From IMG/VR virus record IMGVR_UViG_3300029787_000063, positions 1 through 54,208 of that record: 54,208 bases of DNA; one strand, 5' to 3'. This DNA comes from a virus (Duplodnaviria; Caudoviricetes). Below, piece by piece: positions 5,318 to 40,675 of this stretch (its first letter is position 1; the number at the start of each line of letters is the position of its first letter). Both the position numbers and the translations under genes were made by a program. The notes beneath the pieces were generated by a model. That model was given only the letters and a program-made list of their open reading frames with translations. It was not told where the DNA came from and made no database searches.

Positions 5318-5331
5318 CTAAAACAATTATT

Positions 5332-5751
5332 ATGAACAAATTATTTTTAACAATGGCTTTAGCTTTGATTACTACTATTGCTTCAGCTCAGTTTTCTGTA
5401 TTAACTACCTTTAACGAAGGAGTTGATTCAACATGGAATGTTACAGATAAAATAGGTATCGGTTACCAAGTAAACGATAAACTATTAATAGCTGCAACTA
5501 AAGATGGTGACGATGCTTATGAGTTATTAGGACGTTATGATGTATACGAAGGTGTTTGGGCTACGTGTATATATAATAGTTATGAAGACTCAGTAGCTGA
5601 AACAAAAGATAGGTTAGATGTAGGTCTAGGTTATTCTTATTGTTTGTGGAAAGCTCTTTATGTTGAGCCTTACTTTACTATGCCACTCAGCAAAGACGCT
5701 GATGGTAAAAGAGAAGGTGAACTTAAATTAGGAGTATCTTACAAATTTTAA
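5332..5751 (+). CDS. small outer-membrane beta-barrel protein with signal peptide
   Basis: Signal peptide MNKLFLTMALALITTIASA|QF, amphipathic beta strands (IGIGYQVN, VGLGYSY, LYVEPYFT) and a C-terminal LKLGVSYKF BAM-type signal. Start reassigned from 5281. Confidence 0.8.
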   Translation: MNKLFLTMALALITTIASAQFSVLTTFNEGVDSTWNVTDKIGIGYQVNDKLLIAATKDGDDAYELLGRYDVYEGVWATCIYNSYEDSVAETKDRLDVGLGYSYCLWKALYVEPYFTMPLSKDADGKREGELKLGVSYKF

Positions 5752-5778
5752 ACTAGTATTAATTAAAACAAAAACAAA

Positions 5779-6021
5779 ATGGAAAAAGTAATGAATTATT
5801 TTACAGGATTTTTTGGTGGATTAGTAACAATTATGATACACATAATACCTGTAACAATTTTATGGAGTCTATTAACAGGAGATGTAATATTCGGTATGGA
5901 TGTTATAGGTAATTTTATGGCGATGATAAACGCTTTAGGTAATGCAGGTTTTGTAGGCCTAGTAGCTTTAGTATTTGCTATGTACTTCTTTATGGACTGT
6001 AAAAAAGACTGCAAAAAATAA
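5779..6021 (+). CDS. small integral membrane protein (2-3 hydrophobic helices)
   Basis: 80 aa, almost entirely hydrophobic and Gly-rich; A-rich leader. Confidence 0.75.
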   Translation: MEKVMNYFTGFFGGLVTIMIHIIPVTILWSLLTGDVIFGMDVIGNFMAMINALGNAGFVGLVALVFAMYFFMDCKKDCKK

Positions 6022-6053
6022 ATTAAATATAAACAATTAAATAAAATTAAATT

Positions 6054-6248
6054 ATGAGTTTTAATAAATTAGATTCTTTATTCGACGATTTGCAAGACAC
6101 TATTAACGATTGTCAAAGTGATGTTAGTAAATTTGTTGAAGGAAATAATTCCGCAGGAACGCGGGTAAGAAAAGCTATGCAAGCTGTTAAACAGTTAGCA
6201 CAAGCTGTTAGAGTTGAAGTTCAAGATCAAAAGAACGCACAATTCTAG
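6054..6248 (+). CDS. histone H1-like protein, Hc1 family
   Basis: KFVEGNNSAGTRVRKAM matches the GNxxAGTRxRK signature of Bacteroidota/Chlamydia Hc1-like proteins. Confidence 0.8.
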   Translation: MSFNKLDSLFDDLQDTINDCQSDVSKFVEGNNSAGTRVRKAMQAVKQLAQAVRVEVQDQKNAQF

Positions 6249-6265
6249 TTTTATATTATTAAATG

Positions 6266-6294
6266 AAAAAGGGAGCTTATTGCTCCCTTTTTTT
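6266..6294. terminator. bidirectional rho-independent terminator between the convergent arms
   Basis: AAAAA-GGGAGC-TTATT-GCTCCC-TTTTTTT: perfect stem with an A-tract and a T-tract on either side. Confidence 0.9.
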
Positions 6295-6310
6295 ATATAA
6301 TCGTTTTATT

Positions 6311-14513: not shown

Positions 14514-14884
14514 GCTTCTCCACATTTTTTTGAAGGATTACCTACTTGTCTCCAGTCTTGTTTAACCCAAGTTTTTAAGCTACCACCACTACTAGTACCT
14601 GTAACATTACTTTTACTAGATCTTTTATATTTACCAGCTTTACCAGCAGCACGCTTAGCTCTTATAACTTTTTGTCTTTCAGCTTGACTCATACTAGCTA
14701 TTTTAGCTTTAGGCAGACATACTTTTTTAGTGCCTCCGCCTTTAGCTTTTGTTGGTTTAACTTTTGTTGGAGAAGATTTACGGCAACTACCTTTAGCTCC
14801 TTTAGCTGTACCAGGAACTCGCTCGTAACCTTTCCAACAAGGTAATGGGCTATTTTTAGCAAACTTAGACTTAATATCGTACAC
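14510..14884 (-). CDS. small basic protein (CWKGY motif)
   Basis: K/R/G/S-rich 124 aa; PCWKGYERVPG and LKTWVKQDW motifs. Confidence 0.75.
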   Translation of the reverse strand: MYDIKSKFAKNSPLPCWKGYERVPGTAKGAKGSCRKSSPTKVKPTKAKGGGTKKVCLPKAKIASMSQAERQKVIRAKRAAGKAGKYKRSSKSNVTGTSSGGSLKTWVKQDWRQVGNPSKKCGEA

Positions 14885-15821: not shown

Positions 15822-16030
15822 TTTCCTGCTTTTTGTGTTTTAGAAGCCCACATATTTGCGTATGCAGACGGATAAACCTTAAACTTTCTTTTTGCAGCAG
15901 CTTTACAGCTAGCACTAAGCTTAGCTAAAGCAGGGCTTGTTTTTTTTAACATTTTATTTGGATTACCCTTACCGCCGTCAGCTTTACTAGCATGTACAGC
16001 TTTTCTTTGTGCGTCACTTTTATATCCCAT
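15815..16030 (-). CDS. small basic protein (KFKVYPSAYAN motif)
   Basis: 71 aa, Lys/Ala-rich, tightly packed with its neighbours. Confidence 0.7.
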   Translation of the reverse strand: MGYKSDAQRKAVHASKADGGKGNPNKMLKKTSPALAKLSASCKAAAKRKFKVYPSAYANMWASKTQKAGKC

Positions 16031-16041
16031 AATTATTTATT

Positions 16042-17062: not shown

Positions 17063-17302
17063 TTATTTTCTTTTTACTTCTGTTTTATTATATATTTTAT
17101 CTCTATCTTTTGGATTTTCAAAGTCTAAATATTTTTTCATATTATATTCAACAATAGGCTCGTCTCCTTGTGTTTTAGGATCAGAAAAGTGTTTAAATTC
17201 AGAAACACCTTTACGCATACGAGCTTGTTTAGATCTTAGCTTTGACATGTCTACATCTTTAAACCCGCTAAAACCTTTCATTTTAAATGGTCCTTTTTTC
17301 AT
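17063..17302 (-). CDS. small basic protein with FKMKGFSGF motif
   Basis: MKKGPFKMKGFSGFK; motif shared with 9930..10172. Confidence 0.7.
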   Translation of the reverse strand: MKKGPFKMKGFSGFKDVDMSKLRSKQARMRKGVSEFKHFSDPKTQGDEPIVEYNMKKYLDFENPKDRDKIYNKTEVKRK

Positions 17303-17313
17303 AATTTTTTATT

Positions 17314-18433: not shown

Positions 18434-21400
18434 TTACAACGATTTACCATCTAAGGTAACTCCAAAGCTTTTCTTTTTATTTTTCTTTTTTTGTTTTTTA
18501 ATTTTTTCTTTAACAGCTTCAACTTCTTTGTTTTCAATACCAACATCCCATTTGCTCCAACCTAAACCTACAGCTAGTCTTTGCCACCACTCATTTTCAC
18601 TATTTAAAGCAGCTCTAATATTTTCAACTTTTCTATGTAATCTAGCTACAGGTATATTAGTTGCGCCTTCTATTAACTGCGCATACGCGCCCCATATAGG
18701 ATTATCTAAATCAAAAGTGTCCATTTCAGGTATTACTTTTTTATTAAACTCTAAACTTTTTTCAAAACCATCAAGTTTTCTTTTCTTAATACCTATAGGT
18801 GGTGATAATTGTATTAACTCTTCACTTATAGTATCTAATTGTTTGTTCCACTTTTTATCTTGATTTTCATGGTACTTTACTAAACCATTTTTAATAGTAG
18901 CAACTATAGCACCAGCAACACCGCTACCTCTTAATATAGTATCTATAGTACCGTTAATAACTCTATCTCTTTTACTTTTGAAAAACTTTTGTGTTTTTTC
19001 GTCTTCTTCATCGTCTTCGCTAAATAACATTGCAAACAATGCTGTTTGTAAAGCACCAAATATTATATTTTGCACGGCGCCATAATATATTATTCTTGAT
19101 ATATTAGACATATCGCTTTTAACTTGACTAGTATATGGCTTTGATTTTCTTCTATTAATTAAATCTAAGCCAGCTTTTTTAATTAATCTAACATACTGTG
19201 ATGGTGTATTTTGAAAAGCTAGTATTAATCTACCCAGTACAGATGCTTGTTGCTGTGAAATCATATCAGGTCTAGCTGACTGCTGTGTAGCTTCTGATAC
19301 TTCTTGAAAATCAGTAAATGCTTTTGCTTCTGCTTCTTTTTGTGATAAGCCGTGTGACTTATATGTGTTAACTCTATTACGATACATACCAGCACCACCT
19401 AATGATATTGCAAAACTATCAGCCATTTGTGTAGGTAAAAAACCTATTTGTAATAAATATTTTACAGCGGCCCTAACTTTACCAGCTGCTGTTTTTGATC
19501 TACCTACAGCTGAAGCTATTTCGTTAGCATTAATATCAAAAGCAACACCAGCTCTTCTTTGTTTTAATACATCAGAATTAAATATCATGCTAAAGTCTTT
19601 CCAAAACTGTGGTTGATTAGCAAACGCTGCCGACGCTTTAAATATATTGTTATCACCAAAGTTTATAAAGTTAACAGTAGATAACGTCTGTAATACAGCT
19701 GATCTAGCATTAAAAAACATTGTAGCACCAATAGATCCATTTAAATAATCTAAAAAGCCATTTACTATTTTGTTTGGCCCAACAGTTCTATTAGTACCAT
19801 TTTTAGTTCTATATAATATATCTTTTAACGCTTCTTTAAAATCAGCACCATATGCAGCTTCTATTTTATTTAAATTTTCTTTATTAAATATTATATCAGC
19901 GTTTTCTTGAAACTCGTTAAAAAACTTAGCCCTACCAACTCTCCCTGTAGCATCTGCTAAATCTGTTCTTATATCACCAGCTTCCCAATGTTCACCTGGC
20001 TCTATATAACCCTCATCCATTCTAGATATTTTACCAATAGTATCTGCAAAAGCTTGTAACTCAGGATCGTTTTTAACTAAATCAGATAATTCTTTTACAT
20101 CGGTTTTTGAAGTACCAGGTATTTCAAAACCAGCTTTATCCCACAAATAAACTCTAACAGCATCTGAATAATAGTAATCACCATCAGGTGTTTTATTTGT
20201 AAGTTTTTTACGTAAATCAGGAAACTGTTTTATTAAGTTTTTATAATCAGTAGCTATAGCTTGCTTAGCAGCTGTTAATTCTTGATACGCTCTGTTTAAT
20301 GGTTTAAGTAAAGCTTGTTCAAAAAACGCTCTATGTTTATTACCTTTTTCACCTTTACCCATAAAGTTGTAAAGTAAACCAGAAAAGTCTTCGTGTGATG
20401 GTGGTACAAAAAATCTAAACTTACCTTTGCCTTCACCACGTTTTCTAGCTTTTGTTTGTGAGTATCTTTTCTTTGATTCAATACCAGTAACGTCTTGTAA
20501 TATTTTATTAAACTCACTATCCATATCTTTACTAAACTGTACTTTAGCTTGTTGTATTTTTGATTTAACATCAAATTGATCAAGCATGTTTTTAACAGCT
20601 TGTACGTTTTGTAATGCGTCGTCTGCAAAATAAAAGTCATTATAACCTTCAGATACTTTATCAGCCATCCAAAGCGCTTTAGCTTCACTAGTACTATTAC
20701 CTAAACCAGTTATATTTTTTAAAGGTATGTTTAAGCCGTTAGCTTTTAAAAAGTCAAATATAGCTTGTTGAGCAGCAGGTGGTCTAGCAGTTAATACAAA
20801 CATGTTTTCTGGACCAAACTTCTTTTGTAGCTTTAATGCTTTATTAAATAATGGCGCTAATTTACCTTTTACAACTCTATTAAAATCTGAAAAGTCAAAC
20901 GTATAACCTTGATCTTGTAAGTCTTGATACGTGCTAGCAAACTGTTCAGCGTTTAAAGTACCTGTCTCACCATCTGGCGATGTGTATTTAACTAAAGACT
21001 CTGTTGTTGCTAATGTATCATCAAAGTCTAATACTGTAATGCCTTTAGCTTCTTTTGAATAACTTGTAGTTCTAGCTTTCAAAGCGGCATTACTAAGTTT
21101 ATTGTTTTTGTTTATATCTTTACTAAAACTTAATTTAGAAATAAATTCACCATATCTAGGTGCAACTTCACCAGCTAATTGTTTTATGATAATTTCGTTT
21201 TGTAAATCTATATTAGCAGAACCATCTTTGTACTTAATATTGTTTACGCCAAAAAATTCAGCTATAGTTACTCCTTCTTTTGCAAAAACATACATGTTTA
21301 AATCTATACCAGAAGCAGCTAATCTAACAACGGATGCATAACCATTAGGAAGTTTAAGTTCTCCACTTAAAAGTCTAGGAACAATTTTTTCATAATAAAT

Positions 21401-24400
21401 ATCTGGCATAGAACTAGCATAACCAGCTTCTTCAATCATTTTATCATGAGGGTTTAAATCACTATCAAGCAATGCGCCTTGCATATAAGACTTGCCTATC
21501 ACTTTCCAAGAATCATCAACTTTACCAAAAAAAGCAGAAGATAATAAAGACTTTCCAATTAAATTTTGAGGATCAGTGTGTTCTTCTTTTATTTTTTGAT
21601 TAAATATAGGTTTGCCGTTTTTTACAGGGAAAAAAGTAAATGGAGCTAAAATTCTAGTAAATACATTTTGTTGTTTACCAGTGTCTAAAATTATTTCTTC
21701 AAACATCCAAATATCATCTGGAAAATTTTGTAAATGAGCTTCTATTGCTTTAAAAAAATCTAACAACAAAGGTAATCTACCTTCGTTAGACTCGTTAAGT
21801 TTTCCTTTTTTCAAATTATTATAATGAGCGCCAGTACCACTATATTTAGTTCTAGCAATATAAGCTTGTTTTACATCTGTTTTATTAATTAAATTATTAA
21901 AATTTGAAACAGACTGAAAAAATCCACCTTCTAAACCACCAGTAGTAGTTATTTTTATTAAATCTCTAAACTGCGGATGTGAATCAAGAAAAGTATTTAA
22001 AACTCTAATACCAGCGTCTCTATAAGTTTCTGTTTTGTTAAATTTAGCATCTAAATCTCTAGATCTATAAGGAACTCTTTTTCCTTTAGAGTTTATTCTA
22101 TAAAATGTTTTTTTACTACTTAATTTTAAACCAAGAGACTCAGATAATATACCTAGTTTATGCTCATATGTTTGTTGCCAGTTTTCTAAAGGATTTGCTA
22201 AAGCTTCTGATTCTTTACTAAACATAATAGAAGATTTACCATCTTTTATACGAGAAATATTTTCTTTTGCTTTAATATTAAGATCTGCTAGTTCTTGTCT
22301 AACAGCTTGGTTTGTTATCATCTTACCTAAAGTATTAGCTAAAGCTAAAACTCTAGCTGATGTGTTTCTATCAGTACGATTAGGCTTGCCATCAACAATA
22401 CCAAACACTTCTAAAAATTGCTTTCTATTTATATTATTTTTTTGTTGTACAGCTAAACCAGCTTTACTACCAGTTTTAGCCATTTTAGCTCTATCTGTTT
22501 TAGTGTAAAAAGCTTTTAACAAACTATTAGGCACACCTGTAGCTGTTCCACTAGCAGTAGCACCTTCAGGTAACATGTTAATTAATAGATCAGCATTTTT
22601 ACTAATAAACATTTGTGATGACTGTAATTCACCTTTAGTTATATTAGCGTTTGTAATTAATTTTTTTGGAGCTATACCAAATAAATCACCAACTATTTCT
22701 GGTACTTTATTTTTTAATGTTTTAAACGTTAGTTTATCTATGTCTAAACTAGGTATTATTTTTTGTATAGCTTTTGAAACTTTATCGGTAATACCTAACC
22801 TATCAGCTAAAACTATTTTTTTAGGTCTAGGTTTTGCTTTAACTTCTGTAGTGGTTTCTTCAGCAGCTATATCAACTTTTTCTGTAACGTCTTGTGTAAA
22901 CTCTTCACCTAGTACTCTTTTCGATGCTTCTATAGCTCTTGCTGGTAAAAACTTATTTATATACGCAGCTAATGGTACGCCAGACTCAGGGTTATATTCT
23001 CTAATTAAATCAAATATACCACGCTTACCAGTTTCTATTTCATCTGTTAATAGTTGTCTATCAAAATTTGGCGCGTCTTTACGTTTATCTACTATTTTAT
23101 TTACTATAGGTTTAAATTGATCTATAATATCCATAGCGCCAGCTTCTCCTACATCATCGTATATACGTTGAACATTGTCAGAAGCTTCTTTAGACATTTG
23201 TATAGTTGCTTTAGGATCAGCTTTTTTAGGTATTAATTTACCTTTAGCACCTTTTCTAGCTACTTTTAATATAGCTTTATTTATTTTTCCATCTTTAACA
23301 CTTTTAGTATAATCTTTTACAAAATTATAAACATCTCTACCAGTGTCAAACTTAATCTTTTTTAAACCTACAGCTTGAAGACTTCTTCTTATTACATCAC
23401 CTATCTTAGTAAAAAAGTTTTCTTCAAATTTTAAACTACCATCTAAAATAGATTCAGACATAATAGTAATAGTTTCTTCACCAAAGTTAGAATCTCTTAC
23501 AAAAGTTCCATCTTCTAACTCTTTACCGTAAGCTCTTAATCTATTTACTAAAGCTGTTTTATCACCTTTAATATTAGACACATGTTCTACTAAAGCATCA
23601 CCTAAAGAGTCTTGTATTTTTTGCTGACCACGCAATGTCTTAAATAAAACAGCATGCATAAACTCGTGAGCAGCTGTACCAAGAGCAGGCTTATCTTTAT
23701 TTAAAATTATTTCAAAAGTACCATCGTCAGCTTGATCTATAAAACCAAATTGTTTAGCAGCTTCAGTTGCATTAAAATTTTCACGCTCAATACTAGATAT
23801 TTCATCAGAAGTCATTTCAGTAACTTTACCAGGTAAGTTACCTTGTTTTATAAACTTTTCAATATTCTCTCTTGAATCGTCAACAGCCATTTGTTTTTGT
23901 GCTTCAACTACTTCTTCAGCTGATTTTTTTCTAGCTTTAACCTCTGATGTTCTACCATCTATAGCAGTGTATTTACCTACTATTTCGTTAATTTGTTTTT
24001 CAATATTTTCTAATCTTGTTGTAGCTCCTGGAACAGTAAATATACCAGTTTTTTTAGTATTTGCTACGGCATCTATTCTTTGTTTTTCTAAATCAACTAG
24101 TTTTTTTCTATCATTTACATCTTCTACTTTAGCATCAATTTGAGTTTCTAAATAAATATCTTTTAATCTACTATCTATTAAGTTAGCAAACTTAGCGTCA
24201 TTTTTTACGTTAAATTTTATTTTACTTTTTTCTTCATTAGTTAACTTATTGCTTTCTATTAAATCTAATATTTCTTTTTTAGATCTTTTTTCACCGTTTA
24301 TATTATATTGACTTTTTTGAAGTGTTCCTCTAACTATTTCACCTATATTTATAATTTGACCAGGACCAGTTACTTCACCTATTGCTTCTAAAGTAGCCTC

Positions 24401-25336
24401 ACCTAAGTCTATCTCTTGCTCAGCACCTATTTGACCGCTAACTTCACCAACAAATCCACCAGTAGTTTCTACACCTGTTGTAGCCACTGTTGCTCTACGG
24501 AATTTACCGGCTTTTACAAGTTGACTACCAACACCTCTTGATATACCAAGAGTTAAAGCTTCAACAGCGCCTATATTTCTACCTCTTGCAACAGCTCTTT
24601 GTTTTAATTTTTCAAGCTTTTCTGCGTCTTCTAAAACAGCTCTTATGTTTTCATTAGTTAACTCAACACCAACTCCTATTTCTTCTTGTAATAACTGCAT
24701 CAATGTTAAACCGGTCTCCATAGAACCAACAAGACCTCCAATAGCACCAGAAATAGCACCCGTAACAGCACCTGCTCCTACAGTAGCTGCTCCAAGAGGA
24801 CCAAGAGTAAAACCTGTTGAACCAATAGCCGCACCACCAGCAGCTCCAATTCCTGCACTAGCAGCTGTAGCACCACGAACTTCACCTGATTGTAAAGATC
24901 CAGCCATAATAACAGAACTACTAACTAAAAATTGAGGCACAAAACCTGGATTATCATATAAAGCTTTTAAAGTACCAAGAATACCTCCTCCATATTTTTT
25001 TTGATCATTTGCAAAACTAACTTGCTCGTTAGTTGGACCGTATTGATTCATTTTATTAGCAGCCTCTACTATACTTGTTAGCTGTTTATCGCTTAAATCA
25101 TCACCTATTTTATATATATCAAAAGCCTCGTCAATAGTACCAGCCGTAGAAGTTGCTTGATTATAAACTTGTACTATATCTTCTATAAAACCTTTGTCTT
25201 CTGGTAATGGAGTAGTAGCTTCTTTCATACCAGCACCAAGCATGTTAGTCATGTATTGATCAAAGTCTATATTATTTTCACTAGCAAAATCTTGTAGTTG
25301 TTGTAAGCTATATTGTTGTCCTTTATATTCAAACAT
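18434..25336 (-). CDS. large multidomain putative ejection/internal virion protein (zincin HExxH, sigma-70 region 2-like and HAD-like domains)
   Basis: 2300 aa, last of three genes following the tail genes. Contains a G/A-rich hydrophobic N-region, AAHEFMHA, IIDQFKPIV...EYNPESGVPLAAYI, and VLDFDDTL...VLTAR...FADD. Confidence 0.8.
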   Translation of the reverse strand: MFEYKGQQYSLQQLQDFASENNIDFDQYMTNMLGAGMKEATTPLPEDKGFIEDIVQVYNQATSTAGTIDEAFDIYKIGDDLSDKQLTSIVEAANKMNQYGPTNEQVSFANDQKKYGGGILGTLKALYDNPGFVPQFLVSSSVIMAGSLQSGEVRGATAASAGIGAAGGAAIGSTGFTLGPLGAATVGAGAVTGAISGAIGGLVGSMETGLTLMQLLQEEIGVGVELTNENIRAVLEDAEKLEKLKQRAVARGRNIGAVEALTLGISRGVGSQLVKAGKFRRATVATTGVETTGGFVGEVSGQIGAEQEIDLGEATLEAIGEVTGPGQIINIGEIVRGTLQKSQYNINGEKRSKKEILDLIESNKLTNEEKSKIKFNVKNDAKFANLIDSRLKDIYLETQIDAKVEDVNDRKKLVDLEKQRIDAVANTKKTGIFTVPGATTRLENIEKQINEIVGKYTAIDGRTSEVKARKKSAEEVVEAQKQMAVDDSRENIEKFIKQGNLPGKVTEMTSDEISSIERENFNATEAAKQFGFIDQADDGTFEIILNKDKPALGTAAHEFMHAVLFKTLRGQQKIQDSLGDALVEHVSNIKGDKTALVNRLRAYGKELEDGTFVRDSNFGEETITIMSESILDGSLKFEENFFTKIGDVIRRSLQAVGLKKIKFDTGRDVYNFVKDYTKSVKDGKINKAILKVARKGAKGKLIPKKADPKATIQMSKEASDNVQRIYDDVGEAGAMDIIDQFKPIVNKIVDKRKDAPNFDRQLLTDEIETGKRGIFDLIREYNPESGVPLAAYINKFLPARAIEASKRVLGEEFTQDVTEKVDIAAEETTTEVKAKPRPKKIVLADRLGITDKVSKAIQKIIPSLDIDKLTFKTLKNKVPEIVGDLFGIAPKKLITNANITKGELQSSQMFISKNADLLINMLPEGATASGTATGVPNSLLKAFYTKTDRAKMAKTGSKAGLAVQQKNNINRKQFLEVFGIVDGKPNRTDRNTSARVLALANTLGKMITNQAVRQELADLNIKAKENISRIKDGKSSIMFSKESEALANPLENWQQTYEHKLGILSESLGLKLSSKKTFYRINSKGKRVPYRSRDLDAKFNKTETYRDAGIRVLNTFLDSHPQFRDLIKITTTGGLEGGFFQSVSNFNNLINKTDVKQAYIARTKYSGTGAHYNNLKKGKLNESNEGRLPLLLDFFKAIEAHLQNFPDDIWMFEEIILDTGKQQNVFTRILAPFTFFPVKNGKPIFNQKIKEEHTDPQNLIGKSLLSSAFFGKVDDSWKVIGKSYMQGALLDSDLNPHDKMIEEAGYASSMPDIYYEKIVPRLLSGELKLPNGYASVVRLAASGIDLNMYVFAKEGVTIAEFFGVNNIKYKDGSANIDLQNEIIIKQLAGEVAPRYGEFISKLSFSKDINKNNKLSNAALKARTTSYSKEAKGITVLDFDDTLATTESLVKYTSPDGETGTLNAEQFASTYQDLQDQGYTFDFSDFNRVVKGKLAPLFNKALKLQKKFGPENMFVLTARPPAAQQAIFDFLKANGLNIPLKNITGLGNSTSEAKALWMADKVSEGYNDFYFADDALQNVQAVKNMLDQFDVKSKIQQAKVQFSKDMDSEFNKILQDVTGIESKKRYSQTKARKRGEGKGKFRFFVPPSHEDFSGLLYNFMGKGEKGNKHRAFFEQALLKPLNRAYQELTAAKQAIATDYKNLIKQFPDLRKKLTNKTPDGDYYYSDAVRVYLWDKAGFEIPGTSKTDVKELSDLVKNDPELQAFADTIGKISRMDEGYIEPGEHWEAGDIRTDLADATGRVGRAKFFNEFQENADIIFNKENLNKIEAAYGADFKEALKDILYRTKNGTNRTVGPNKIVNGFLDYLNGSIGATMFFNARSAVLQTLSTVNFINFGDNNIFKASAAFANQPQFWKDFSMIFNSDVLKQRRAGVAFDINANEIASAVGRSKTAAGKVRAAVKYLLQIGFLPTQMADSFAISLGGAGMYRNRVNTYKSHGLSQKEAEAKAFTDFQEVSEATQQSARPDMISQQQASVLGRLILAFQNTPSQYVRLIKKAGLDLINRRKSKPYTSQVKSDMSNISRIIYYGAVQNIIFGALQTALFAMLFSEDDEEDEKTQKFFKSKRDRVINGTIDTILRGSGVAGAIVATIKNGLVKYHENQDKKWNKQLDTISEELIQLSPPIGIKKRKLDGFEKSLEFNKKVIPEMDTFDLDNPIWGAYAQLIEGATNIPVARLHRKVENIRAALNSENEWWQRLAVGLGWSKWDVGIENKEVEAVKEKIKKQKKKNKKKSFGVTLDGKSL

Positions 25337-29765: not shown

Positions 29766-32700
29766 TTAAGCTAATATATGTGAACAACCAACTGATATTG
29801 GACCATAAGTATACTCACATTCATCAGGATATGTTGTTATTTTTACTTCGTAATAAGTTGGATTACCATGTCCAAAACCGTCTACAGGGTTACCATAATT
29901 ACCGTCTATACCAGCTGTTACGCCACCAGGTAAAGTTTGTTGATTCCAAGTAACACCACCAGGAATATTAAATGTTTGTCCATCGTTAGGAGTACTTAAT
30001 AAAATTTTTCCACTACTAATAAAAGGAGGTGTTATTTGATATATTTCAGCTGTAAAGCTAGTAGCACCAACAGATGAAGATATTACATTAAAATTAACAC
30101 TTCCATTACAACAATTGTTTCCAAGTGTTATATTACAAACAGAAGGTATTGTAGTAACACCGTTAGCGTTTGTACCTTGAGAATCAACTACTAAGTTTGA
30201 CGTATTACAAGGTCCTGGTGGTGGAGGTGGAGCGCCAACGCAAGGAATAGTTACAATTTCTGTTACACCACAACCATCTACAGGATTAGTCATTTCTATT
30301 TCATAATCACCAGCAACTAAATTAGGCGCAGCATAGTTAGTAGAACCGTTATGAGATGATGTTAGTATATTAATACCTGATTGTGTTAAGTTTAAAGGAG
30401 TAGGTGTTAATCTTTTAACTTTAAGTAAAATATCTGATGTTATGTTAGTCCAAAAAATTTGTATCATACCACCATCAAGCGGATTATTTACGCCACAATC
30501 TGGTTGTATAGCTGGAGTTATAACAATATTATGTGAAAATAAGTTTGCAGGATTACAAGGTATTTGTGTACAATCAGATTGGCAATGCGTAAGTGCATCG
30601 CTAAACCCAGCAGATATAGCAGAAGAATTAGTATATTGTCCTAAACCAGTACCAGGATCATAACAAGTATATGGAGGTATATTACCAACGCCTGGTATGT
30701 TTATTCCACTAGCACCTGAACAATCGTAAGTAATAGACGTAGGTGGAACATTATATTCACAACTACAATCAGGTGTATTAGCAGCTGGATAATAATTATT
30801 AGCAGGACCAATCCAAGTTGGAGGTCTAAGTTGTGTTATGTACGGATCTGTTGTATTACCATCATCCATACAACCTGGAATAACAGGTGTAGGTGATGTT
30901 AAGTTTTGACAACCGTAAAGATAAGCTTCACCTTCATCGCAGCATAAGCTAGTAATTACACATTCACAGTACGTTGAGAAGCTACCGCTACCATCACCTG
31001 GATCTAAGCATTGACCATTTATACACTCGTATGTTTCTTCGTTTAATCCGCAAACAGCTTCGCAAGCTGATAAAGTAGGAAACTCACCATCTTGATCTTG
31101 CCTTTCAACACATGAAAAACCAGCACTACTACAAGGAGTTCTATGCATGTGACCAATTGAGAGATAATTACCTAAACCTTCTTGAGTTCCTATAGTTGGC
31201 ATTTCGCCTATAGAATTTACTTCAGATTTAAAATTAGCCCAAGACATACCGTTGTAAAAATTACCATTATACGGTGCAGCACTATAGTGAGTTGAGAAAT
31301 AATCTATTGCTTCTTGTGCTGTTAAAAAATATGTAACATTTCCAGCTGTAAGTGTGCTAGGAGCAGGTGAATAAGGAGTGTGTTTAAGAGGGGCAGGCGT
31401 TGCGTACCAGCCACCTGTAAAATCAACTCCATTTATCTGATAAAAATGGTCTGAGATCGTATCGGTCAAAGATGTAAAACCTTGTATTGCAACACCTTGG
31501 ATTTCATGATAGTCATCCCAAAATTTTAACGTTGGGTTTTGCCAAAAATATTCCCAAATTTGATCTATTACATCATTAAGACCATCTCTGTTTCCAGTAG
31601 GACCTGGGCCTATTGTTCCAGTAAATACTTGTCCACTAGCCTGTTGATAATGTGTCGTTGGATTAGGAGGTGTACCTAAACCAAGACTACTATAAATTTC
31701 TCCCCAAAATATAGAATCATAACCTTGTTCTTTATTATTAAGATCTAATCCATAATAACCATTCCAACCAATGCACTCCGTGCAATCATAAGAAGTATAA
31801 CCACCACTAATTATAGTTACCGCTTCAGTTCTATCTATACCTTGGTATGAAAACTCTCTTGTATCTATATTACCAGCTTTACCATCATCTAACCACTCAG
31901 TAGTTACACCTTTTATTTGTGAAAACCATTTACCTTCTTTTTCTTTAAACTCTTGCATACCACCTTCTTGCAAGTTAGTTAACATATTACTTACGTACCA
32001 GCCAGCATGTAAATAGTTATCCCAATATTCACCAGAGTTTAGCGTGTCAGGTGTTACTCTTGATTGTGTACCTTCATAATTTAAAGTATTAAAACTTTTA
32101 ACTGACTCAGGCGCTTCGTTAAATAACACTTCAATACTAGAATCATACTGATCGCCGTAAAAATTATTTCTTGGTTGAGATTCTACGTGATGTTCGTGTA
32201 AATGTCCTTCTTTAAACGTGTAGTAAGTATTGTTTAAACTAACACCACTTTCTTGTGCCCACGATTTAAAACTTGTCCAACCTTTTGCTCTTTCAGAAAA
32301 GCTTACAGTTGTATCGTAGTTACCACTAATATTAGTGTATGTTGAAACAGGATCAGGTTGAGTACCAAGAGCAACATGAGTTTGCCAAGCGCTAGGACTA
32401 GGACCAAACAAAGATACTACGTCTGTAAAAGCAGGCTCTGGATTAACAGTTAGTATTAGCTGACTAAAGTTAACAGTAACGCTAGTTACTACTGTATTAG
32501 GTGCTAAACCAGGACCGTTTAAAACCATACCTGCAGTAATAGCTTGTTGAGAAGAAGTTATTATACGACCAGTTGGTATATCATAGTTTCCACCACAACC
32601 ACAATTTTGACCTTCTATTTCAACTATAAAGTTATCAATAATATGTACAGGTTGTGCTACAGGATATTCGTTGTAATCTAATGTTAAATTATATTCATCT

Positions 32701-35700
32701 TTCTTTTCATCAAAGCTACCAATTAATCTATTAGCTAGTTTTAAATTATCAGCAAAATAATCACCCATACCAAAGTCTGATATTGGTGTAATACCATCTT
32801 GTGATAATCTTAACACTTGACCTCTAACTTTGTCTGCAAAATAAGATCTATAAGATTCGTTAACAAAAGACTCTGGATTTTTAGATATACCAAAATCACC
32901 AGCATAAGGTATTGTTTGGCCTAATACTCTGTCAGTAGCTGTAACATTAGTATTACCATCAGCATTAAATAAAGCGTCTTTATTAGCTAATATTTTAAAT
33001 ACTTTGTCTTCACAAAGCGTAACTAAATTTGTATTTCTAGCGTATAACTTTTGTATTGTACCATAAGAAGGATTTAAATCTTTTGTAATTTTTTCTGCTT
33101 GTATAAACTGGTTTAAATTATTTATACCAGACATTGAATTATATATACCTGAGTAAATTAAACCACTACCTCTTCTTTCTTCTTCATATGGTTCTTCTAA
33201 TGTGGTAGATGCTTTTGGTCCGTTATCTATAGTAACTTGATTAAAGTCATCACGCACTCTATCAGACTCAACTCCATTACCAAACGAGTAACAGTTATGC
33301 CAAGGTAGTGTAACTTTGTAATTATGTAAATTTCTATCTAACTCTATTTCACCAGTAAAAGCATTTACGTTTAATACGCTAGTTTCTGTTTTACCACCAT
33401 CAGCTCTTACAAAAGTTAGTATATCACCAATTAAAGGTAATAAAGCATTTGGATTATTACCTATGCTTAAAGGTTCGCCGTCAATATTGCACAATGTTAA
33501 TACGTTGTCTACTATACTTTGAACTCTAATATCTATAACAGGTCCTCCAGTAACACTAGCGTCTGTAGATAAAACTCTTAAAGCTCCACTAGGATTAGTA
33601 TTTGGATTAGGGTCATAACAATTAACTTTACTATTATAACGAGCTAAATCAAAAGATCTATGTACAGGCCCTACAAACTGCTCACCTGTTTTTTCGTTTA
33701 ATTCTATTGGATATATTTGTCCAACTTCATAATATATGTTTAAATCTACGTTTTCTTTTGGTTCAGTTTCAAATATAGCTGGATTTGTACTAGAATACTT
33801 TTCAGTATCATCAGTAACATAAGGAGATACAATTTGCCAAGTACAACTACCTGGAAATTTAGCCGCACCAGAAGTACCTTCTTTAGTTGGACCAGCAGGA
33901 ACAACTACACCACCTATAGAATATCCAGAATAAACACCATCAGAACGTATACCAGGAGCAGGTGTTGGTGGTAAGGCTGTGCCAGTTTTTAATACACTAC
34001 TACTATCAAAATGTGGTGTTAAATGCGGATTGTTAGTAGGTAAATACATAGATCCTTTTTCGCCTAAGCCTGACCCATCTTCATAAGCCTCGGCAACAAT
34101 CATGTATCTTCTTCTTCTGTTTATACCTTTCCACCAGTCTTTTACATACATTGGCCAAAAACCATGAGCTCGATTAGTGTCAGTTGGTCGTGTAATAGTG
34201 CTAGGCGCTTGTTCCCAACCACCACAACTATTAGCTTGATTGTTTATCGGATTCATTATTCTTGTAACCCAAGATCCAATAGCACTATTATTTGTTCTAA
34301 AAGACATACCAACATTTGTTATGCTTTTACCTATTTCTTGACTGTATCTCCAGTTTACTTGATCTTGACCTGTACCAGTTGCGTCTGAATAAAAATTATA
34401 TTCTGTAAAATAAACAGGAGCTGTAGAAGCACTATGACTTTTAATACCACCTGAAACCCACCAACCCGTGTCTACGATATTACTAGAAGTAGAATCAAAG
34501 AACAAATAAAGATCATCACACCAATCACCAAGTCTACAATAATTATAAAGACCAATACCTGGTTTAGAATCAATTGTATCAATAGTTCTAAAATTAATAT
34601 CTATTTCTCTTTGTGTTATACCCCAAGCCGTTAAATTTGCAGGATCAGGTGTTATTGTTTTATATAATCTTTGATCAGGATCTTCTGACCATCTCCAAAC
34701 AGTATTAGGCGTAGTTAAAAGATTTATAAATACAATGTCTTCAACGTGTTTAGCTAAAGTAGGATCTACATAATCAAAATGTAAAACTAAATCAGCCATA
34801 GTATCACCTTCGCCTGGCGCATCTTTTCCATTTACATCTGTACCATCAAGATCTTCACCAACTCCAGAATGAGATATTGTTATTATACCAGTGCCTTGAT
34901 AACTATTAACACCACCAACTAAACCACTATGATCTGGATTTACTCCACCAGCATTAGCATGGCCATCAATACCTAAAGACTGTATTATCTCACCACCATT
35001 ACTAGCTAAATTACCAAAATTAGCTTGGTCTTGTAAATAACCATTTAAACCTGTTCTAAGAACCGTTTGGTTTATATAATCTGCAGCTCCATTTATATTA
35101 TTAGCTGCTGCAAAAGCATTAAAATCATCACGATTAGGCGTATCTCTTACGCCAGTTGGAGATATTAAATAGTCTGGCTCTCCATTAGGACCTGTACCTT
35201 TATAAGAAGGGCCATTTATACCCCCAGCGTTTCCTCCTGTATACAAGTAATTACGAGTGTGAGATGTTTGTGAAGTAGCGGTACCCATAACCACAGGCAT
35301 ATCGTATCTGTTCATAGCATTAGTTTGCCCGTTTTGACTAGAAAACCAATTGTGTTTTGGAAACCATCTTAAACTTGCTGATTGATGAAAATGATCATCG
35401 AGTGTACTATTAGCAAAATCTCTTGTTACCCAAGGATCTTGATTTCTTAATTTAAAATAATGCTCTGTAGTTTTAAACCTTCTAAATCCTTCAACTCTAT
35501 CAATAAACCAACCTGAAGAATTAGCATCTCCATCGGCTAAATTATGACTAGCTTTACTCCAAAACTCTTGTCCATTTTCTCTACGCATATCAGCGTCATA
35601 ATTAGATTCACCTTGATTTTCAGAAATACTAATACCTCTTCTGTCTTGACCAAAAAAATGAGCTTCACTACCTTTTGAAAAATTAGAATCAGGATTTATA

Positions 35701-38471
35701 TATTGTACTCGTCTAGATGCTATGACTTGCCAATCAAGCGCGCTTGATATATTTTTTATTAAACTTTGTTCTAGTTGACTATCTCTTTTTATTTTAACAA
35801 AAAATCTACCATCAAACTCTGGTTTGTTTTCAACTATTCTTCTTCTTAGCTCAGCACTACCACCACCAGTATAAGTATTTATAGTACCATCTGCAGAAAG
35901 CACTTGAACGTCTGATTCAAACTTTTTAAATATATCAAACCTATAATCTGCTGTTTGATCTTTAATGCCTTTTATTCTATACCAATTACTAGCAAAATTA
36001 TTACCAGTAGAAGCTGTGCCAATAAATCTAATATCAAAATCTTTTAACGGCGCTGGATCTGATGCTGGAAAAGAAGGGTCAAGATTTAATATTTGAGTCC
36101 AACCAGAAGTTTCTACTAAAGTTTTGTCTATAGTCACAAACTTACCATCTAACTCTGGAAAACCAGTACCACCAGCCCCACCTAAATCAAAAGGCGAAGC
36201 TGTTTTTGTGTCAATTAAAACAGGTTGTTGAAGGTTAGTTGTTTTAATAAATAGTGGAGCTTCATTTTCTATTGCTATAACTTTATATCTAGCTGGAGAA
36301 TCAACAAAAACATCTGTATCGTGTTCTTTTTTAAGTATTAAAAATGTTTCTTCATTTATTTTATTTCTTTCAGACGAAGGAAAACTAATCCATATATTAC
36401 CATCTTCAGCGTTATACCAACGATCCATTGCTAAGTTATAATACTCACTTGATGTTTCTTTAACAAAAAATTTATATGATTTAGCCCACTCAGGATGTGT
36501 GTTGTATAATTGTGCTTCTAATTTATTTTTTTTATCAGCAATTATTTTTTCTAAATATAAAGAAGCCTTGTCTATTGTGCTATTAGAAAATACAGGTGTT
36601 TCTCTACCATACTCATCTATATAAGCAACACCTAGTTGATATGTTCTTAATGTTTTTACAGATCTAGTAGGAGAATAATAATTTTCATTATTATAAAAAG
36701 CATCTATTTGTTCAGGTAATAAATTAGGCGTCATAATATTATTTGAACTAACAGAAACTTTTACATCAACAGATATTTTTGATTCTGGATCTAATTCACC
36801 AAAATTAAACTCACTATAGTGTTGTAATGCTTTTGAGTTAACAGCAAACCTATTAAACATGTTATAGTTTTGCAAATAATTACCATATACTAATCTGTTA
36901 CCTACAACTTCTTGAGCTAAAGCTACTCTTGGTACGTTATCATACGGTCTTAATAATTGATTAGCAGGCAAAATAGCATGTATCATTTCTGATGTTATTC
37001 TAGTCCAGCCTCTAGTAAATTGACTAGATACTAAACCATTAGCAGTACCTGTTGTTCTTGGGCCAACAGCATTCCACTCACTATAATTAGTTGTAGCATC
37101 ATCTAAACTTGTTATATTATTAGACCAAGGTTCAAAACCTGGTACCCAGTCGTTTTCTAAACGCTTTATAGTTTTTACAGTATATATGTTTGGTGAGTTA
37201 GACTCTTTATAAAGTATATCTACAGATATAACGTCGTCTGGTATAGACTGTCCGTGTACAAAATCTTTTATAGCTAAAAATCTTAGATTATTAACCATAC
37301 CTAGATTATAACCTTCTTTTGGTAAATAATCAAACTCTTGAGGTAAAAATGCTACTTGTGAAAAAGGTGAAAAAGAAGAGTACTCACCATCTTCATATTT
37401 ATATCTTATACCAAACCTAGGAAATTTAAATTGAAATAAAGGTTCTGCTTGTTCTAGCTCTACATACCACTCATTATTTGCAGATATTAAATTTTTATCT
37501 CCAGACAATATTTTTAATATAGCCGCACCAGTAACTATATCATAAGTTGTTATTTCTGCTCTAACATATTTTGTTTTTTCTGACTGTAGCAAATATGAAG
37601 TAGAAGCTGAAGATTCATCGCTGTATATATTTATTATATCGCCAATTATAAAGTCTGGAAAACCAACTAAAGCACCAGCTGATATAAAGTTTAAACTATA
37701 GTTTTGTATTGGATCACTATTAGTGTCAAAAAAAGCATCTGTAGAATTAAAACTACCAGTTATATTTAAAGCGTAGCTAGCTCCAAATTGAGTTGGTAAT
37801 TGCCCTTGTTCTTCTCTAAGTTTATTACGCATTTCTAAAACAGGTGGAGCTGGTGGGCTTTTCTTTATAACAGTTACATGCTCATGAGTTAAATCACCTT
37901 TAGGATAATATTCTATATTAGCGTTGTTAGTTGATATATCTCTTACATATAATTGCGTTTGGCTTGTAAAATTAGGTGTACCTAATTTACATCTATCAAT
38001 ATGTATTCTTTTTGGTTCTGAATAGTTATCAGTCCAAAACAACATATTTTCTATTATGTTAATACCTGTAATTGTAAATGCTCTATCGAAATTTAATACT
38101 CTACCGCTTTCATTTCCCGGTATAGTTCCTGCAGGAAACAGGTCTACAACAACGGGTGTTGTTGTTTGTGTTTTGTAATCATATTCAGCTATTATATCAG
38201 AAGTACTACCAGCTAGCATCCAATATATTTTATCATGCTGTTCATTAACTATGCTACCAACACAATAAAAATCACCATTATTATTAGGATCAATTGTTAT
38301 TAGCGACATATTTAAATTACCCATAACTGTTTGCACAGTACCCATATCAGAAGTATCTGACGTAGCAACTTCTATGTTTAACGCATCTCTATATTCACCG
38401 TTAGGTACTAGTCTCTCATCAAGGTCTTTGTTCATACGACCTGATGAAAATCTATGATTCAGATTTGGCAT
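29766..38471 (-). CDS. tail nozzle/muzzle ('stabilization', P22 gp10-like) protein with large insertions and a Cys-rich C-terminal extension
   Basis: 2901 aa; N-terminal GRMNKDLDERLVPNGEYRDALN, LFWTDN, FGNGVESDRVRDDFN, FGISKNPESF and FKEKEGKWF blocks; follows the ring proteins. Confidence 0.8.
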   Translation of the reverse strand: MPNLNHRFSSGRMNKDLDERLVPNGEYRDALNIEVATSDTSDMGTVQTVMGNLNMSLITIDPNNNGDFYCVGSIVNEQHDKIYWMLAGSTSDIIAEYDYKTQTTTPVVVDLFPAGTIPGNESGRVLNFDRAFTITGINIIENMLFWTDNYSEPKRIHIDRCKLGTPNFTSQTQLYVRDISTNNANIEYYPKGDLTHEHVTVIKKSPPAPPVLEMRNKLREEQGQLPTQFGASYALNITGSFNSTDAFFDTNSDPIQNYSLNFISAGALVGFPDFIIGDIINIYSDESSASTSYLLQSEKTKYVRAEITTYDIVTGAAILKILSGDKNLISANNEWYVELEQAEPLFQFKFPRFGIRYKYEDGEYSSFSPFSQVAFLPQEFDYLPKEGYNLGMVNNLRFLAIKDFVHGQSIPDDVISVDILYKESNSPNIYTVKTIKRLENDWVPGFEPWSNNITSLDDATTNYSEWNAVGPRTTGTANGLVSSQFTRGWTRITSEMIHAILPANQLLRPYDNVPRVALAQEVVGNRLVYGNYLQNYNMFNRFAVNSKALQHYSEFNFGELDPESKISVDVKVSVSSNNIMTPNLLPEQIDAFYNNENYYSPTRSVKTLRTYQLGVAYIDEYGRETPVFSNSTIDKASLYLEKIIADKKNKLEAQLYNTHPEWAKSYKFFVKETSSEYYNLAMDRWYNAEDGNIWISFPSSERNKINEETFLILKKEHDTDVFVDSPARYKVIAIENEAPLFIKTTNLQQPVLIDTKTASPFDLGGAGGTGFPELDGKFVTIDKTLVETSGWTQILNLDPSFPASDPAPLKDFDIRFIGTASTGNNFASNWYRIKGIKDQTADYRFDIFKKFESDVQVLSADGTINTYTGGGSAELRRRIVENKPEFDGRFFVKIKRDSQLEQSLIKNISSALDWQVIASRRVQYINPDSNFSKGSEAHFFGQDRRGISISENQGESNYDADMRRENGQEFWSKASHNLADGDANSSGWFIDRVEGFRRFKTTEHYFKLRNQDPWVTRDFANSTLDDHFHQSASLRWFPKHNWFSSQNGQTNAMNRYDMPVVMGTATSQTSHTRNYLYTGGNAGGINGPSYKGTGPNGEPDYLISPTGVRDTPNRDDFNAFAAANNINGAADYINQTVLRTGLNGYLQDQANFGNLASNGGEIIQSLGIDGHANAGGVNPDHSGLVGGVNSYQGTGIITISHSGVGEDLDGTDVNGKDAPGEGDTMADLVLHFDYVDPTLAKHVEDIVFINLLTTPNTVWRWSEDPDQRLYKTITPDPANLTAWGITQREIDINFRTIDTIDSKPGIGLYNYCRLGDWCDDLYLFFDSTSSNIVDTGWWVSGGIKSHSASTAPVYFTEYNFYSDATGTGQDQVNWRYSQEIGKSITNVGMSFRTNNSAIGSWVTRIMNPINNQANSCGGWEQAPSTITRPTDTNRAHGFWPMYVKDWWKGINRRRRYMIVAEAYEDGSGLGEKGSMYLPTNNPHLTPHFDSSSVLKTGTALPPTPAPGIRSDGVYSGYSIGGVVVPAGPTKEGTSGAAKFPGSCTWQIVSPYVTDDTEKYSSTNPAIFETEPKENVDLNIYYEVGQIYPIELNEKTGEQFVGPVHRSFDLARYNSKVNCYDPNPNTNPSGALRVLSTDASVTGGPVIDIRVQSIVDNVLTLCNIDGEPLSIGNNPNALLPLIGDILTFVRADGGKTETSVLNVNAFTGEIELDRNLHNYKVTLPWHNCYSFGNGVESDRVRDDFNQVTIDNGPKASTTLEEPYEEERRGSGLIYSGIYNSMSGINNLNQFIQAEKITKDLNPSYGTIQKLYARNTNLVTLCEDKVFKILANKDALFNADGNTNVTATDRVLGQTIPYAGDFGISKNPESFVNESYRSYFADKVRGQVLRLSQDGITPISDFGMGDYFADNLKLANRLIGSFDEKKDEYNLTLDYNEYPVAQPVHIIDNFIVEIEGQNCGCGGNYDIPTGRIITSSQQAITAGMVLNGPGLAPNTVVTSVTVNFSQLILTVNPEPAFTDVVSLFGPSPSAWQTHVALGTQPDPVSTYTNISGNYDTTVSFSERAKGWTSFKSWAQESGVSLNNTYYTFKEGHLHEHHVESQPRNNFYGDQYDSSIEVLFNEAPESVKSFNTLNYEGTQSRVTPDTLNSGEYWDNYLHAGWYVSNMLTNLQEGGMQEFKEKEGKWFSQIKGVTTEWLDDGKAGNIDTREFSYQGIDRTEAVTIISGGYTSYDCTECIGWNGYYGLDLNNKEQGYDSIFWGEIYSSLGLGTPPNPTTHYQQASGQVFTGTIGPGPTGNRDGLNDVIDQIWEYFWQNPTLKFWDDYHEIQGVAIQGFTSLTDTISDHFYQINGVDFTGGWYATPAPLKHTPYSPAPSTLTAGNVTYFLTAQEAIDYFSTHYSAAPYNGNFYNGMSWANFKSEVNSIGEMPTIGTQEGLGNYLSIGHMHRTPCSSAGFSCVERQDQDGEFPTLSACEAVCGLNEETYECINGQCLDPGDGSGSFSTYCECVITSLCCDEGEAYLYGCQNLTSPTPVIPGCMDDGNTTDPYITQLRPPTWIGPANNYYPAANTPDCSCEYNVPPTSITYDCSGASGINIPGVGNIPPYTCYDPGTGLGQYTNSSAISAGFSDALTHCQSDCTQIPCNPANLFSHNIVITPAIQPDCGVNNPLDGGMIQIFWTNITSDILLKVKRLTPTPLNLTQSGINILTSSHNGSTNYAAPNLVAGDYEIEMTNPVDGCGVTEIVTIPCVGAPPPPPGPCNTSNLVVDSQGTNANGVTTIPSVCNITLGNNCCNGSVNFNVISSSVGATSFTAEIYQITPPFISSGKILLSTPNDGQTFNIPGGVTWNQQTLPGGVTAGIDGNYGNPVDGFGHGNPTYYEVKITTYPDECEYTYGPISVGCSHILA

Positions 38472-40472: not shown

Positions 40473-40474
40473 AA

Positions 40475-40663: not shown

Positions 40664-40675
40664 ATTATGTTTTTT

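Follow-up and report, generated by a model that had tools for sequence, protein, structure and literature searches.

How does a phage take hold of the transcription machine of a cell that it has only just entered? Phages are known to start transcription either from early promoters that depend on the host sigma factor or with an RNA polymerase (RNAP) of their own that is injected, as in N4 and in crAss-like and phiKZ-like phages. The IMG/VR virus record IMGVR_UViG_3300029787_000063 (Caudoviricetes; 54,208 bp, all of which was analysed and is called the window here) raises the question of whether there is a solution between these two. A preliminary description of this DNA had noticed, at positions 22911-23134, a segment resembling region 2 of sigma-70 factors inside a giant putative ejection protein, and had proposed it as an alternative to the virion RNAP of crAss-like phages. 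Is this segment a sigma domain at all, does it lie in an injected protein, and what would it do in the host? With regard to the first question, residues 713-815 of the giant protein, P0001, very probably form a genuine, very diverged sigma2-type domain. As for the others, the domain most likely docks on the host core RNAP after ejection, an assignment that builds on presumed packaging, cleavage and RNAP binding. Going by the model, the phage may arrive with a handle of its own on the host transcription machine.

Read on the plus strand, 22911-23134 does not encode the peptide, for the frame is interrupted by a stop, and this reading was discarded. The reverse complement gives exactly the 74-aa peptide quoted in the preliminary description, followed by SKRV. 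This peptide corresponds to residues 735-808 of a 2300-aa open reading frame (ORF), so that its placement inside a giant protein is real, on the minus strand. The parts of the protein that concern the domain are the following:

18434..25336, minus strand: P0001, a 2300-aa modular giant protein of polyvalent type, probable virion cargo or ejection protein (ORF, homologs, module conservation map).
22892..23200, minus strand: sigma-domain-2-like domain, residues 713-815, regions 1.2-2.4 by superposition (AlphaFold2 model, superposition on Protein Data Bank (PDB) entries, hhalign).
22832..22891, minus strand: acidic low-confidence linker, residues 816-835 (pLDDT <50 at model residues 122-149; variable in the alignment).
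22211..22831, minus strand: basic alpha/beta domain specific to the family, residues 836-1042 (AlphaFold2 model, charge, PDB searches).

The assignment is carried first by the predicted fold. Residues 691-1010 were modelled with AlphaFold2 from an alignment of 33 sequences and no templates (mean pLDDT 75.6), and a helical domain appears at model residues 23-123 with a block-mean pLDDT of about 65-87. Against the PDB, Foldseek returned no match at E<=0.001; sigma-factor entries are 49 of the 50 matches listed (E 0.017-0.6, every E at least 0.017), and the SigE N-terminal domain superposes with a TM score of 0.68 and a root-mean-square deviation (rmsd) of 2.7 Å over 76 columns. After rigid-body realignment of Foldseek's 394 chains with VIA-align, all 50 matches listed are sigma domain 2. 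The best of them, E. coli sigma70 (6ca0_F; Z 9.2, rmsd 2.8 Å, 90 residues), is covered from region 1.2 to region 2.4, skipping the sigma70 insertion. When 48,161 representative PDB chains were searched without a filter, the 26 top-ranked matches were without exception entries titled as sigma factors (Z 8.6-6.1), among them sigmaB (Z 8.6), sigma32 (8.2), sigma28 (7.7), extracytoplasmic function (ECF) sigmas and 7d7d_F (7.0); rank 27 is an engineered scaffold, ranks 28-30 are sigma factors again, and the first natural non-sigma chain stands at rank 31 (Z 5.5). Because the ranking is specific to sigma entries and the sequence register agrees with it, the prediction of a sigma2-like fold for residues 713-815 has good support. 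The segment first noticed is therefore part of a wider domain, which adds a helix resembling that of region 1.2.

How much of this is visible in the sequence itself? Narrow and broad family profiles, the latter made from 52 sequences that are pairwise <72% identical, were compared with five E. coli sigma2 regions by the profile-profile method hhalign. The narrow profile gave P 0.0011 and the broad one a score of 28.7 (P 1.8e-4, 60 columns), a score that none of 100 column-shuffled nulls reached (null maximum 18.3). As a positive control, the phage sigma encoded by relatives was recognized by the E. coli sigma2 profile with P 5e-11. When PDB sequences were searched with a 102-column hidden Markov model (HMM) of the block, sigmaK came out at E 0.26 and the N-terminal domain of SigE at E 0.35, two of the top three matches, both in the register of the hhalign alignment, and a 312-column HMM of the family found no sigma among the same sequences. 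NCBIfam SigI matches the peptide (E 0.017) and 11 of the 33 family members (best E 0.0034), FliA/WhiG and SigK match two of the 33 each, and the PHROG family "RNA polymerase sigma factor" appears at E 0.089, all of these lying far below the curated cut-offs. A further lead comes from a protein language-model atlas, in which Sigma70_r2 clusters make up 13 of the 30 nearest sets (score 0.92, 123/256 shared features). The sequence signal for sigma2 is thus real but faint. Since no null reaches the hhalign score and the model superposes best on sigma domain 2, the resemblance to sigma region 2 exceeds chance.

If it is a sigma2-type domain, what would it do? The beta-prime clamp helices of core RNAP are the surface used by every sigma2. 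P0001 would be packed in the virion and ejected ahead of the DNA or together with it; the sigma2-like domain would then dock on the clamp helices of the host enzyme, and the basic domain would hold nucleic acid. In this way the core polymerase would be captured for the incoming genome and/or the host sigma would be kept off it, and a separate canonical phage sigma, known from relatives, would run the later programme. That the domain serves, after ejection, as such a docking or competitor handle has about an even chance of being right, given that packaging, ejection, RNAP binding and effect all enter into it.

A number of results weigh against this reading. Pfam Sigma70_r2 (PF04542), the check that had been proposed at the outset, came out negative: it matches neither P0001 nor the 74-aa peptide nor a 201-aa excerpt, even at E<=10, and none of the 33 family members; a six-frame search of the window also gave no match, and ten control genomes did. 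Searches of PDB sequences with phmmer and hmmsearch returned nothing significant, and nothing below E 0.24 with the family HMMs. The hhalign probability for the broad profile against E. coli sigma2 is only 48%. For the fold, the tool itself warns that Z values under 8-13 in helical proteins may reflect a common helical arrangement, a range that takes in the values of 6-9 seen here, and the AlphaFold2 model may itself be drawn to the sigma fold by the same faint signal. Of the profile or structural match that had been looked for, then, the predicted fold stands, the hhalign signal is faint, and the Pfam profile does not match.

Other points on the same side come from individual residues, which were numbered by way of the E. 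coli rpoD gene and placed by the hhalign register rather than by a solved structure. We take K414, K418, Y425, Y430, W433, W434, Q437, T440 and R441 of sigma70 to be the positions that contact or melt the -10 element. Most of them are replaced: K414 by D776 (in 33/33 sequences), K418 by E, Y425 by V, W433 by K, Q437 by A, T440 by I and R441 by E, and the replacements are mostly near-invariant in the family. The sigma70 positions Q406, E407 and N409, which presumably touch beta-prime, differ as well (Q406 is E, E407 is T, and N409 is variable). Outside the domain, no promoter-like motif common to the intergenic stretches of the window was seen, most of these stretches holding small ORFs. A tblastn search of 50,697 phage records with the sigma-like region and the C-terminal 888 aa gave no match; no cultured phage in that set carries the module from which proteomic support for packaging could come. 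Finally, the relatives already own a complete sigma factor, and a second one is not obviously needed.

Could the resemblance then be one of helices alone? The domain might be a helical look-alike, or a former sigma2 exapted to a task without any RNAP role, such as packing or scaffolding in the capsid or binding another host target. The lack of a Pfam or significant HMM match, Z values under the caution line for helical folds and the changed functional residues would all suit such a history. It fits poorly with a ranking in which sigma entries occupy places 1-26 of 48,161 chains, with an independent sequence signal in the same register, and with the conservation of the block. In the 33 sequences, 28 columns are invariant, many of them polar and of surface type, which argues for a specific partner. 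The alternative is accordingly held to be improbable. Judged by its sequences, the block is under strong purifying selection, and it retains the core that sigma factors share in register, G-hydrophobic...[FY]-x-P-x-x-G-x-x-[FL]-x-x-Y: D765, I767, G770, G773, I774, Y781, G786, L789, Y792, F796 and L797 stand where sigma70 has D403, I405, G408, G411, L412, F419, G424, F427, Y430, W434 and I435.

A sigma factor needs more than domain 2 to work alone, and so what follows the domain matters; the preliminary description had recognized no region 4 helix-turn-helix (HTH). This observation is upheld, in that none is detectable with PF04545, which matched nothing in the window (E<=1), or by fold. Modelled alone, the basic domain (residues 836-1042) has a pLDDT of 82.8 and a pTM of 0.82. 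Foldseek against the PDB gave at best E 0.41 with a probability of 0.11, and the 48,161 PDB chains gave at best Z 3.4, neither search matching a sigma3, sigma4 or HTH fold. In the viral structure library BFVD it matches only a member of its own family (TM score 0.80), and in the language-model atlas it has no named neighbour. Its composition is strongly basic, K+R numbering 35 and D+E 17, for a net charge of about +18. Two stretches align weakly with HTH elements of sigma factors: residues 875-895 with region 3.0/3.1 (score 17.0, null maximum 15.9) and residues 843-864 with region 4.2 (score 15.8, which 2/100 nulls equal). By the tests run, the module in P0001 is not a complete sigma factor. 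As a separate observation, weak matches to the N-terminal part of the ClpS adaptor family of NCBIfam (7/33 members, best E 5.5e-5) fall on residues ~824-869 (22750-22891, minus strand), where they cover the acidic linker together with the helix that opens the basic domain, and are likely compositional.

Might the module nevertheless be a working minimal sigma, delivered in the virion, that reads a -10-like element of early promoters as gp55 of T4 does, with the basic domain replacing sigma4 as the second contact to DNA or RNAP? Some features invite this idea. The entry 7d7d, whose chain F we take from its title to be T4 gp55, is among the fold matches (Z 7.0); the aromatic positions Y430 and W434 are kept in kind as Y792 and F796; the basic domain has its large net charge and two weakly HTH-like stretches; and the module, bounded by conserved junctions, has the size of a sigma factor. 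Against it stand the -10 positions, five of seven contact positions being replaced, two of them by acidic residues, which argues against classical -10 reading, and a C-terminal domain that matches no sigma3, sigma4 or HTH fold. Furthermore, no promoter-like motif is repeated in the window (all direct repeats are coding and none is promoter-like, and TAnnTTTG is not enriched between the genes), and the relatives have their own gene for a canonical sigma. A self-sufficient sigma of this kind is considered unlikely. With most -10 residues replaced and no sigma4 detected, a docking or competitor role is favoured over an autonomous, promoter-reading sigma.

Among known proteins, domain 2 of sigma-70 factors (sigma70 6ca0_F, S. 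aureus sigmaB 8x6g_H, E. coli sigma32 8hkc_E, sigma28 and ECF sigmas) has the same predicted fold over ~90 residues, the better matches spanning Z 9.2-6.1 and rmsd 2.4-3.6 Å. In contrast to these factors, the domain of P0001 has no Pfam match, its contact residues are mostly replaced and no sigma3 or sigma4 was detected with it; it is also embedded in a 2300-aa protein of the structural gene block, whereas sigma-70 factors are free proteins of 20-70 kDa. T4 gp55 comes closer: it too is made by a phage and has a sigma2-like domain (7d7d_F: rmsd 3.4 Å over 93 residues), and it lacks sigma4, which was not detected in P0001 either. It is a free protein made during infection and works with gp33 and the gp45 clamp, unlike the domain described here, which is part of a probable virion protein.

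A related question is whether these phages have a sigma factor of the ordinary kind. Five near-complete relatives with the giant protein (61-64 kb, 97-100% complete) were searched with PF04542, and all five contain a separate matching open frame of 251-254 aa, in four cases over the cut-off. In the two loci that were read (L087:1399-2148 and L088:1393-2142, both plus strand), it is a 249-aa ORF in the early/replication block with a canonical region 2 (Pfam Sigma70_r2, 23.8-24.0 bits) and a region-4-type HTH (a weak Sigma70_r4 match); frames were also found in L089-L091, and an HTH-containing ORF of 206-216 aa precedes the sigma gene in the relatives. This sigma and its four neighbours have no homolog in the window (best tblastn E 0.21). 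The window itself opens inside a primase/helicase gene (1-885, plus strand), of whose product 294 aa are retained out of ~576 in relatives; the record, classed as linear with an estimated completeness of 95%, is therefore a truncated linear fragment despite that estimate, 7-10 kb shorter than its near-complete relatives. In one relative that is 100% complete (G002), whose primase/helicase is 92% identical to the fragment in the window, a sigma match lies on the same strand ~3 kb upstream of the part that the window retains. Judging from this gene order, the canonical sigma most probably lies just beyond the 5' end of the contig.

Is the sigma2-like block, then, a copy of the phage's own sigma? 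Compared with the sigma of the relatives it gave P 0.012, with 0/60 nulls as high, and it is no closer to that protein than to the E. coli sigmas. A recent duplication was rejected on this basis, and by sequence the block is an old, separately evolving domain. As for an alternative to the virion RNAP as a transcription strategy, the idea is tempered by the canonical sigma present in five of five relatives. No RNAP was recognized in the window (no PHROG RNAP match; PF00940, for single-subunit RNAP, gave no match either, but its control matched nowhere and so it is uninformative).

How widespread is the protein that carries the domain? Among 6411 candidates of 1265-4025 aa, residues 640-960 find 1119 homologs at E<=0.001, and the 120 homologs listed are 63-91% identical over this stretch. 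A profile of the block alone, run against 1.84 billion representatives, matches 292 proteins at E<=0.001 (251 at <=1e-10), each standing for a protein cluster at 50% identity. All 150 of the matches listed are giant proteins or fragments of them; the first residue of the block in these ranges from 2 to 1896, the lowest values belonging to fragments. For many family members, the sources are named as marine (TARA) samples. A stand-alone form of the module (183-585 aa) was also sought. Most of the 66 matches come from short contigs (1-3 kb), and a sigma Pfam domain is recorded for none of them; a direct Pfam scan of seven of the 66 gave no sigma match either. P0181, whose contig is 63 kb long, begins in the middle of the module and is a fragment or a split gene. 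The candidate was dropped.

The rest of the protein is modular. Mean identity in an alignment of 30 full-length relatives is about 0.2 over residues 1-500, a variable N-terminus; it rises to 0.65-0.90 over the sigma-like module (residues 715-1040), with a peak of 0.81-0.86 over the sigma2 block, and falls to 0.13-0.35 over the variable residues 1040-1400. The other conserved parts, with their mean identities, are these:

23237..23824, minus strand: HExxH module, possibly zincin-like, residues ~505-700 (motif read from the translation; weak NCBIfam match); mean identity 0.4-0.67.
23654-23668, minus strand: HEFMH motif of this module, residues 557-561 (read from the translation).
20537..21079, minus strand: HAD-phosphatase-like module, residues ~1420-1600, with DFDDT, T and DD motifs (read from the translation); mean identity 0.65-0.93.
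18497..20524, minus strand: conserved C-terminal region, residues ~1605-2280, with one hydrophobic segment resembling a transmembrane helix at 2087-2105 (family alignment); mean identity 0.5-0.8 over residues 1600-2280.

In 100 long representatives the order of the modules is fixed, with some of them optional: in 72 the HExxH module immediately precedes the sigma-like block, the basic C-domain was detected with its narrow profile in 46 and the HAD-like module in 59. The HExxH module has a weak match to an NCBIfam HExxH metalloprotease family (E 0.036), and phmmer found no peptidase for it in the PDB. The best PDB match of the module, at residues ~557-623 (23468-23665, minus strand), is polyubiquitin (E 0.0024, 21 bits), which overlaps HEFMH and is probably spurious. 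For residues 1420-1600, the motifs DFDDT, T and DD are those that we take to name a HAD phosphatase; Pfam gave no HAD match, only DUF2608 at E 4.4e-4 and below its cut-off, and phmmer against the PDB nothing useful. This module may, on its motifs, be an injected phosphatase effector. Some relatives carry Zeta_toxin/AAA, DUF5763 or SLT domains, for example an SLT lytic transglycosylase domain at the N-terminus of P0079 (residues 18-72) and Zeta_toxin-type kinase domains at residues ~1640-1920 of others; as far as sequence can tell, the SLT and Zeta_toxin-type domains are consistent with ejected effector cargo.

Does P0001 travel in the virion? Its gene is located downstream of the tail genes and shares its minus-strand block with the portal, the terminase and the muzzle gene, which is:

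29766..38471, minus strand: 2901-aa neighbour with a crAss muzzle-protein C-terminal domain (PF25729 crAss_MUZ_C; phrog_14478 virion structural protein).

The PF25729 match (E 8.7e-12, 45.8 bits against a cut-off of 27) indicates, by sequence, a crAss-like tail architecture. In the crAss model phage, cargo present in virions is encoded by the genes that follow those for the tail and the muzzle, according to the available part of that study (PMC10172136), and P0001 occupies the corresponding slot. From gene position, size and the domains of its relatives, P0001 is probably a virion cargo or ejection protein, and the ejection role assigned to it from the start agrees with its size, its position, its modular build and the crAss-type muzzle gene of the phage. 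The family also shows the polyvalent trait of several unrelated domains that are swapped among relatives. The best explanation for P0001 is a modular giant protein of polyvalent type, from a marine podophage of the Flavobacteriia type with a crAss-like tail.

A different timing is conceivable. The domain could act before packaging in the cell that produces the virions, on late transcription or in host shut-off, and be left behind or be inert on delivery. The gene does lie in the late structural minus-strand block, and packaging of P0001 is deduced rather than observed. Yet the family carries domains of ejected proteins (SLT in P0079, Zeta_toxin-type kinases), it fits the pattern of polyvalent proteins as far as the text available describes it (PMC5512222), and in the crAss model phage the stretch beyond the tail and muzzle genes codes for virion cargo, by the part of the study at hand (PMC10172136). 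Action in the producing cell alone is regarded as quite unlikely, the least probable of the readings discussed here.

Several known systems resemble the docking or competitor handle that is favoured for P0001. In the portion of their article available, Iyer et al. (2017) described polyvalent injected proteins, likely processed by zincin-like metallopeptidases and with a role in jump-starting transcription (PMC5512222). P0001 is like them, as that portion presents them, in being giant, with swappable modules, an HExxH module, effector domains in relatives and a proposed part in jump-starting transcription once injected (PMC5512222). It differs in that no Pfam LPD-type domain was found in it. 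In the main text of the same article, the word "sigma" occurs 0 times and the domains described do not include a sigma2-like one, the supplement being outside this search (PMC5512222). The cargo and RNAP proteins gp47, gp49 and gp50 of crAss-like phages follow the same logic, in which a large protein made from a late gene is kept in the particle and ejected for the start of transcription, in the accessible text (PMC10172136), as does the virion-stored and ejected RNAP of N4, likewise going by a partial text (PMC13434306). In those phages, the cargo includes an RNAP; P0001 would recruit the host enzyme and not replace it. The closest functional precedent seen is gp53 of mycobacteriophage D29, which, by the part of the preprint available, sits on the RNAP surface to which sigma binds, ousts the host sigma by mimicking it and so represents the competitor mode favoured here (bioRxiv 10.64898/2026.10.05.756390). 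It is likened by its described function alone, for gp53 is expressed during infection, is not described as virion cargo in that part, and comes from an unrelated host and phage group. In the full-text literature searched, a sigma-like domain was found described neither in a virion protein nor in a polyvalent phage protein, supplements not being covered. What would be new is the protein context in which a sigma-family domain occurs and, plausibly, the route of delivery.

Another intriguing feature of the protein is a short motif at the borders of its modules:

23186..23197, minus strand: junction M-S-K-E, residues 714-717, N-terminal border of the sigma-like module (28/30 relatives).
22211..22222, minus strand: junction F-S-K-E, residues 1039-1042, C-terminal border of the sigma-like module (27/30 relatives).
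20525..20536, minus strand: junction F-S-K-D, residues 1601-1604, after the HAD-like module (29/30 relatives).
21116..21127, minus strand: F-S-K-D, residues 1404-1407, ahead of the HAD-like module (kept in less than 60% of 30 sequences; not a conserved site).

The pattern [FM]-S-K-[ED] thus occurs four times in P0001 (residues 714, 1039, 1404 and 1601), against a mean of 0.11 and a maximum of 2 in 200 shuffles. In the form hydrophobic-S-[KRQ], it is kept at S715 (28/30), S1040 (27/30) and S1602 (29/30), which border the two best-conserved modules, and also at S1771 (29/30) and, less so, at three further sites. Directly past the junction at residues 1039-1042, conservation drops from 0.48 to 0.20. 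In the models, these motifs sit at transitions from disorder to fold, the site at residue 714 marking the passage from a disordered to a helical part. The sigma-like module that they bound is ~330 residues long.

Are these junctions cleaved? The hydrophobic-Ser-Lys junctions may be sites of cleavage. In the most ambitious version, cleavage at the conserved junctions, perhaps by the protein's own HExxH module, would free a capsid-stored factor of ~37 kDa that is injected ahead of the DNA and programmes the host core RNAP onto the entering genome. This version is doubtful, and more so than a minimal sigma. If true, the ~37-kDa factor would switch on the early genes, including that of the canonical sigma, giving a sigma cascade with a virion-borne first member, a third strategy beside the virion RNAPs of N4 and crAss-like phages and the reliance on host sigma. 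The simpler docking or competitor handle would, if true, already be an intermediate solution, and a widespread one, found in 292 clusters. It would add a domain of the transcription-factor type to the repertoire of polyvalent injected proteins, and the conserved junction motif offers a candidate processing code for these giant proteins that can be tested.

Who is the host, and what else does the window hold? The terminase is nearest to that of Flavobacterium phages of the vB_FspP_elemo group (46%), then to those of Cellulophaga, Tenacibaculum and Maribacter phages, so that a host among the Flavobacteriia is very likely on sequence grounds; to one uncultured record it is 63.6% identical. PHROG and Pfam scans show a plus-strand early/replication block at 1-6021, with the C-terminal half of the primase/helicase, ThyX, MazG, a resolvase and a ribonucleotide reductase, and a long minus-strand block with the terminase, the portal, virion proteins, an endolysin and a holin.

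Some smaller observations can be added. The ORF at 11922-14525 encodes an 867-aa protein with an N-terminal MAM domain (PF00629, 83 bits) and contains, at 12247-13967 on the minus strand, twelve copies, mostly in tandem, of a repeat of ~78 nt (26 aa); it is probably a receptor-binding or fibre protein. Small ORFs starting with ATG occupy 6022-6310, 15822-16041, 17063-17313 and 40473-40707, stretches that count as intergenic under an 80-aa ORF cut-off. GC-rich hairpins followed by T runs, resembling terminators, lie near 6040-6070, 40680-40700 and 41590-41615.

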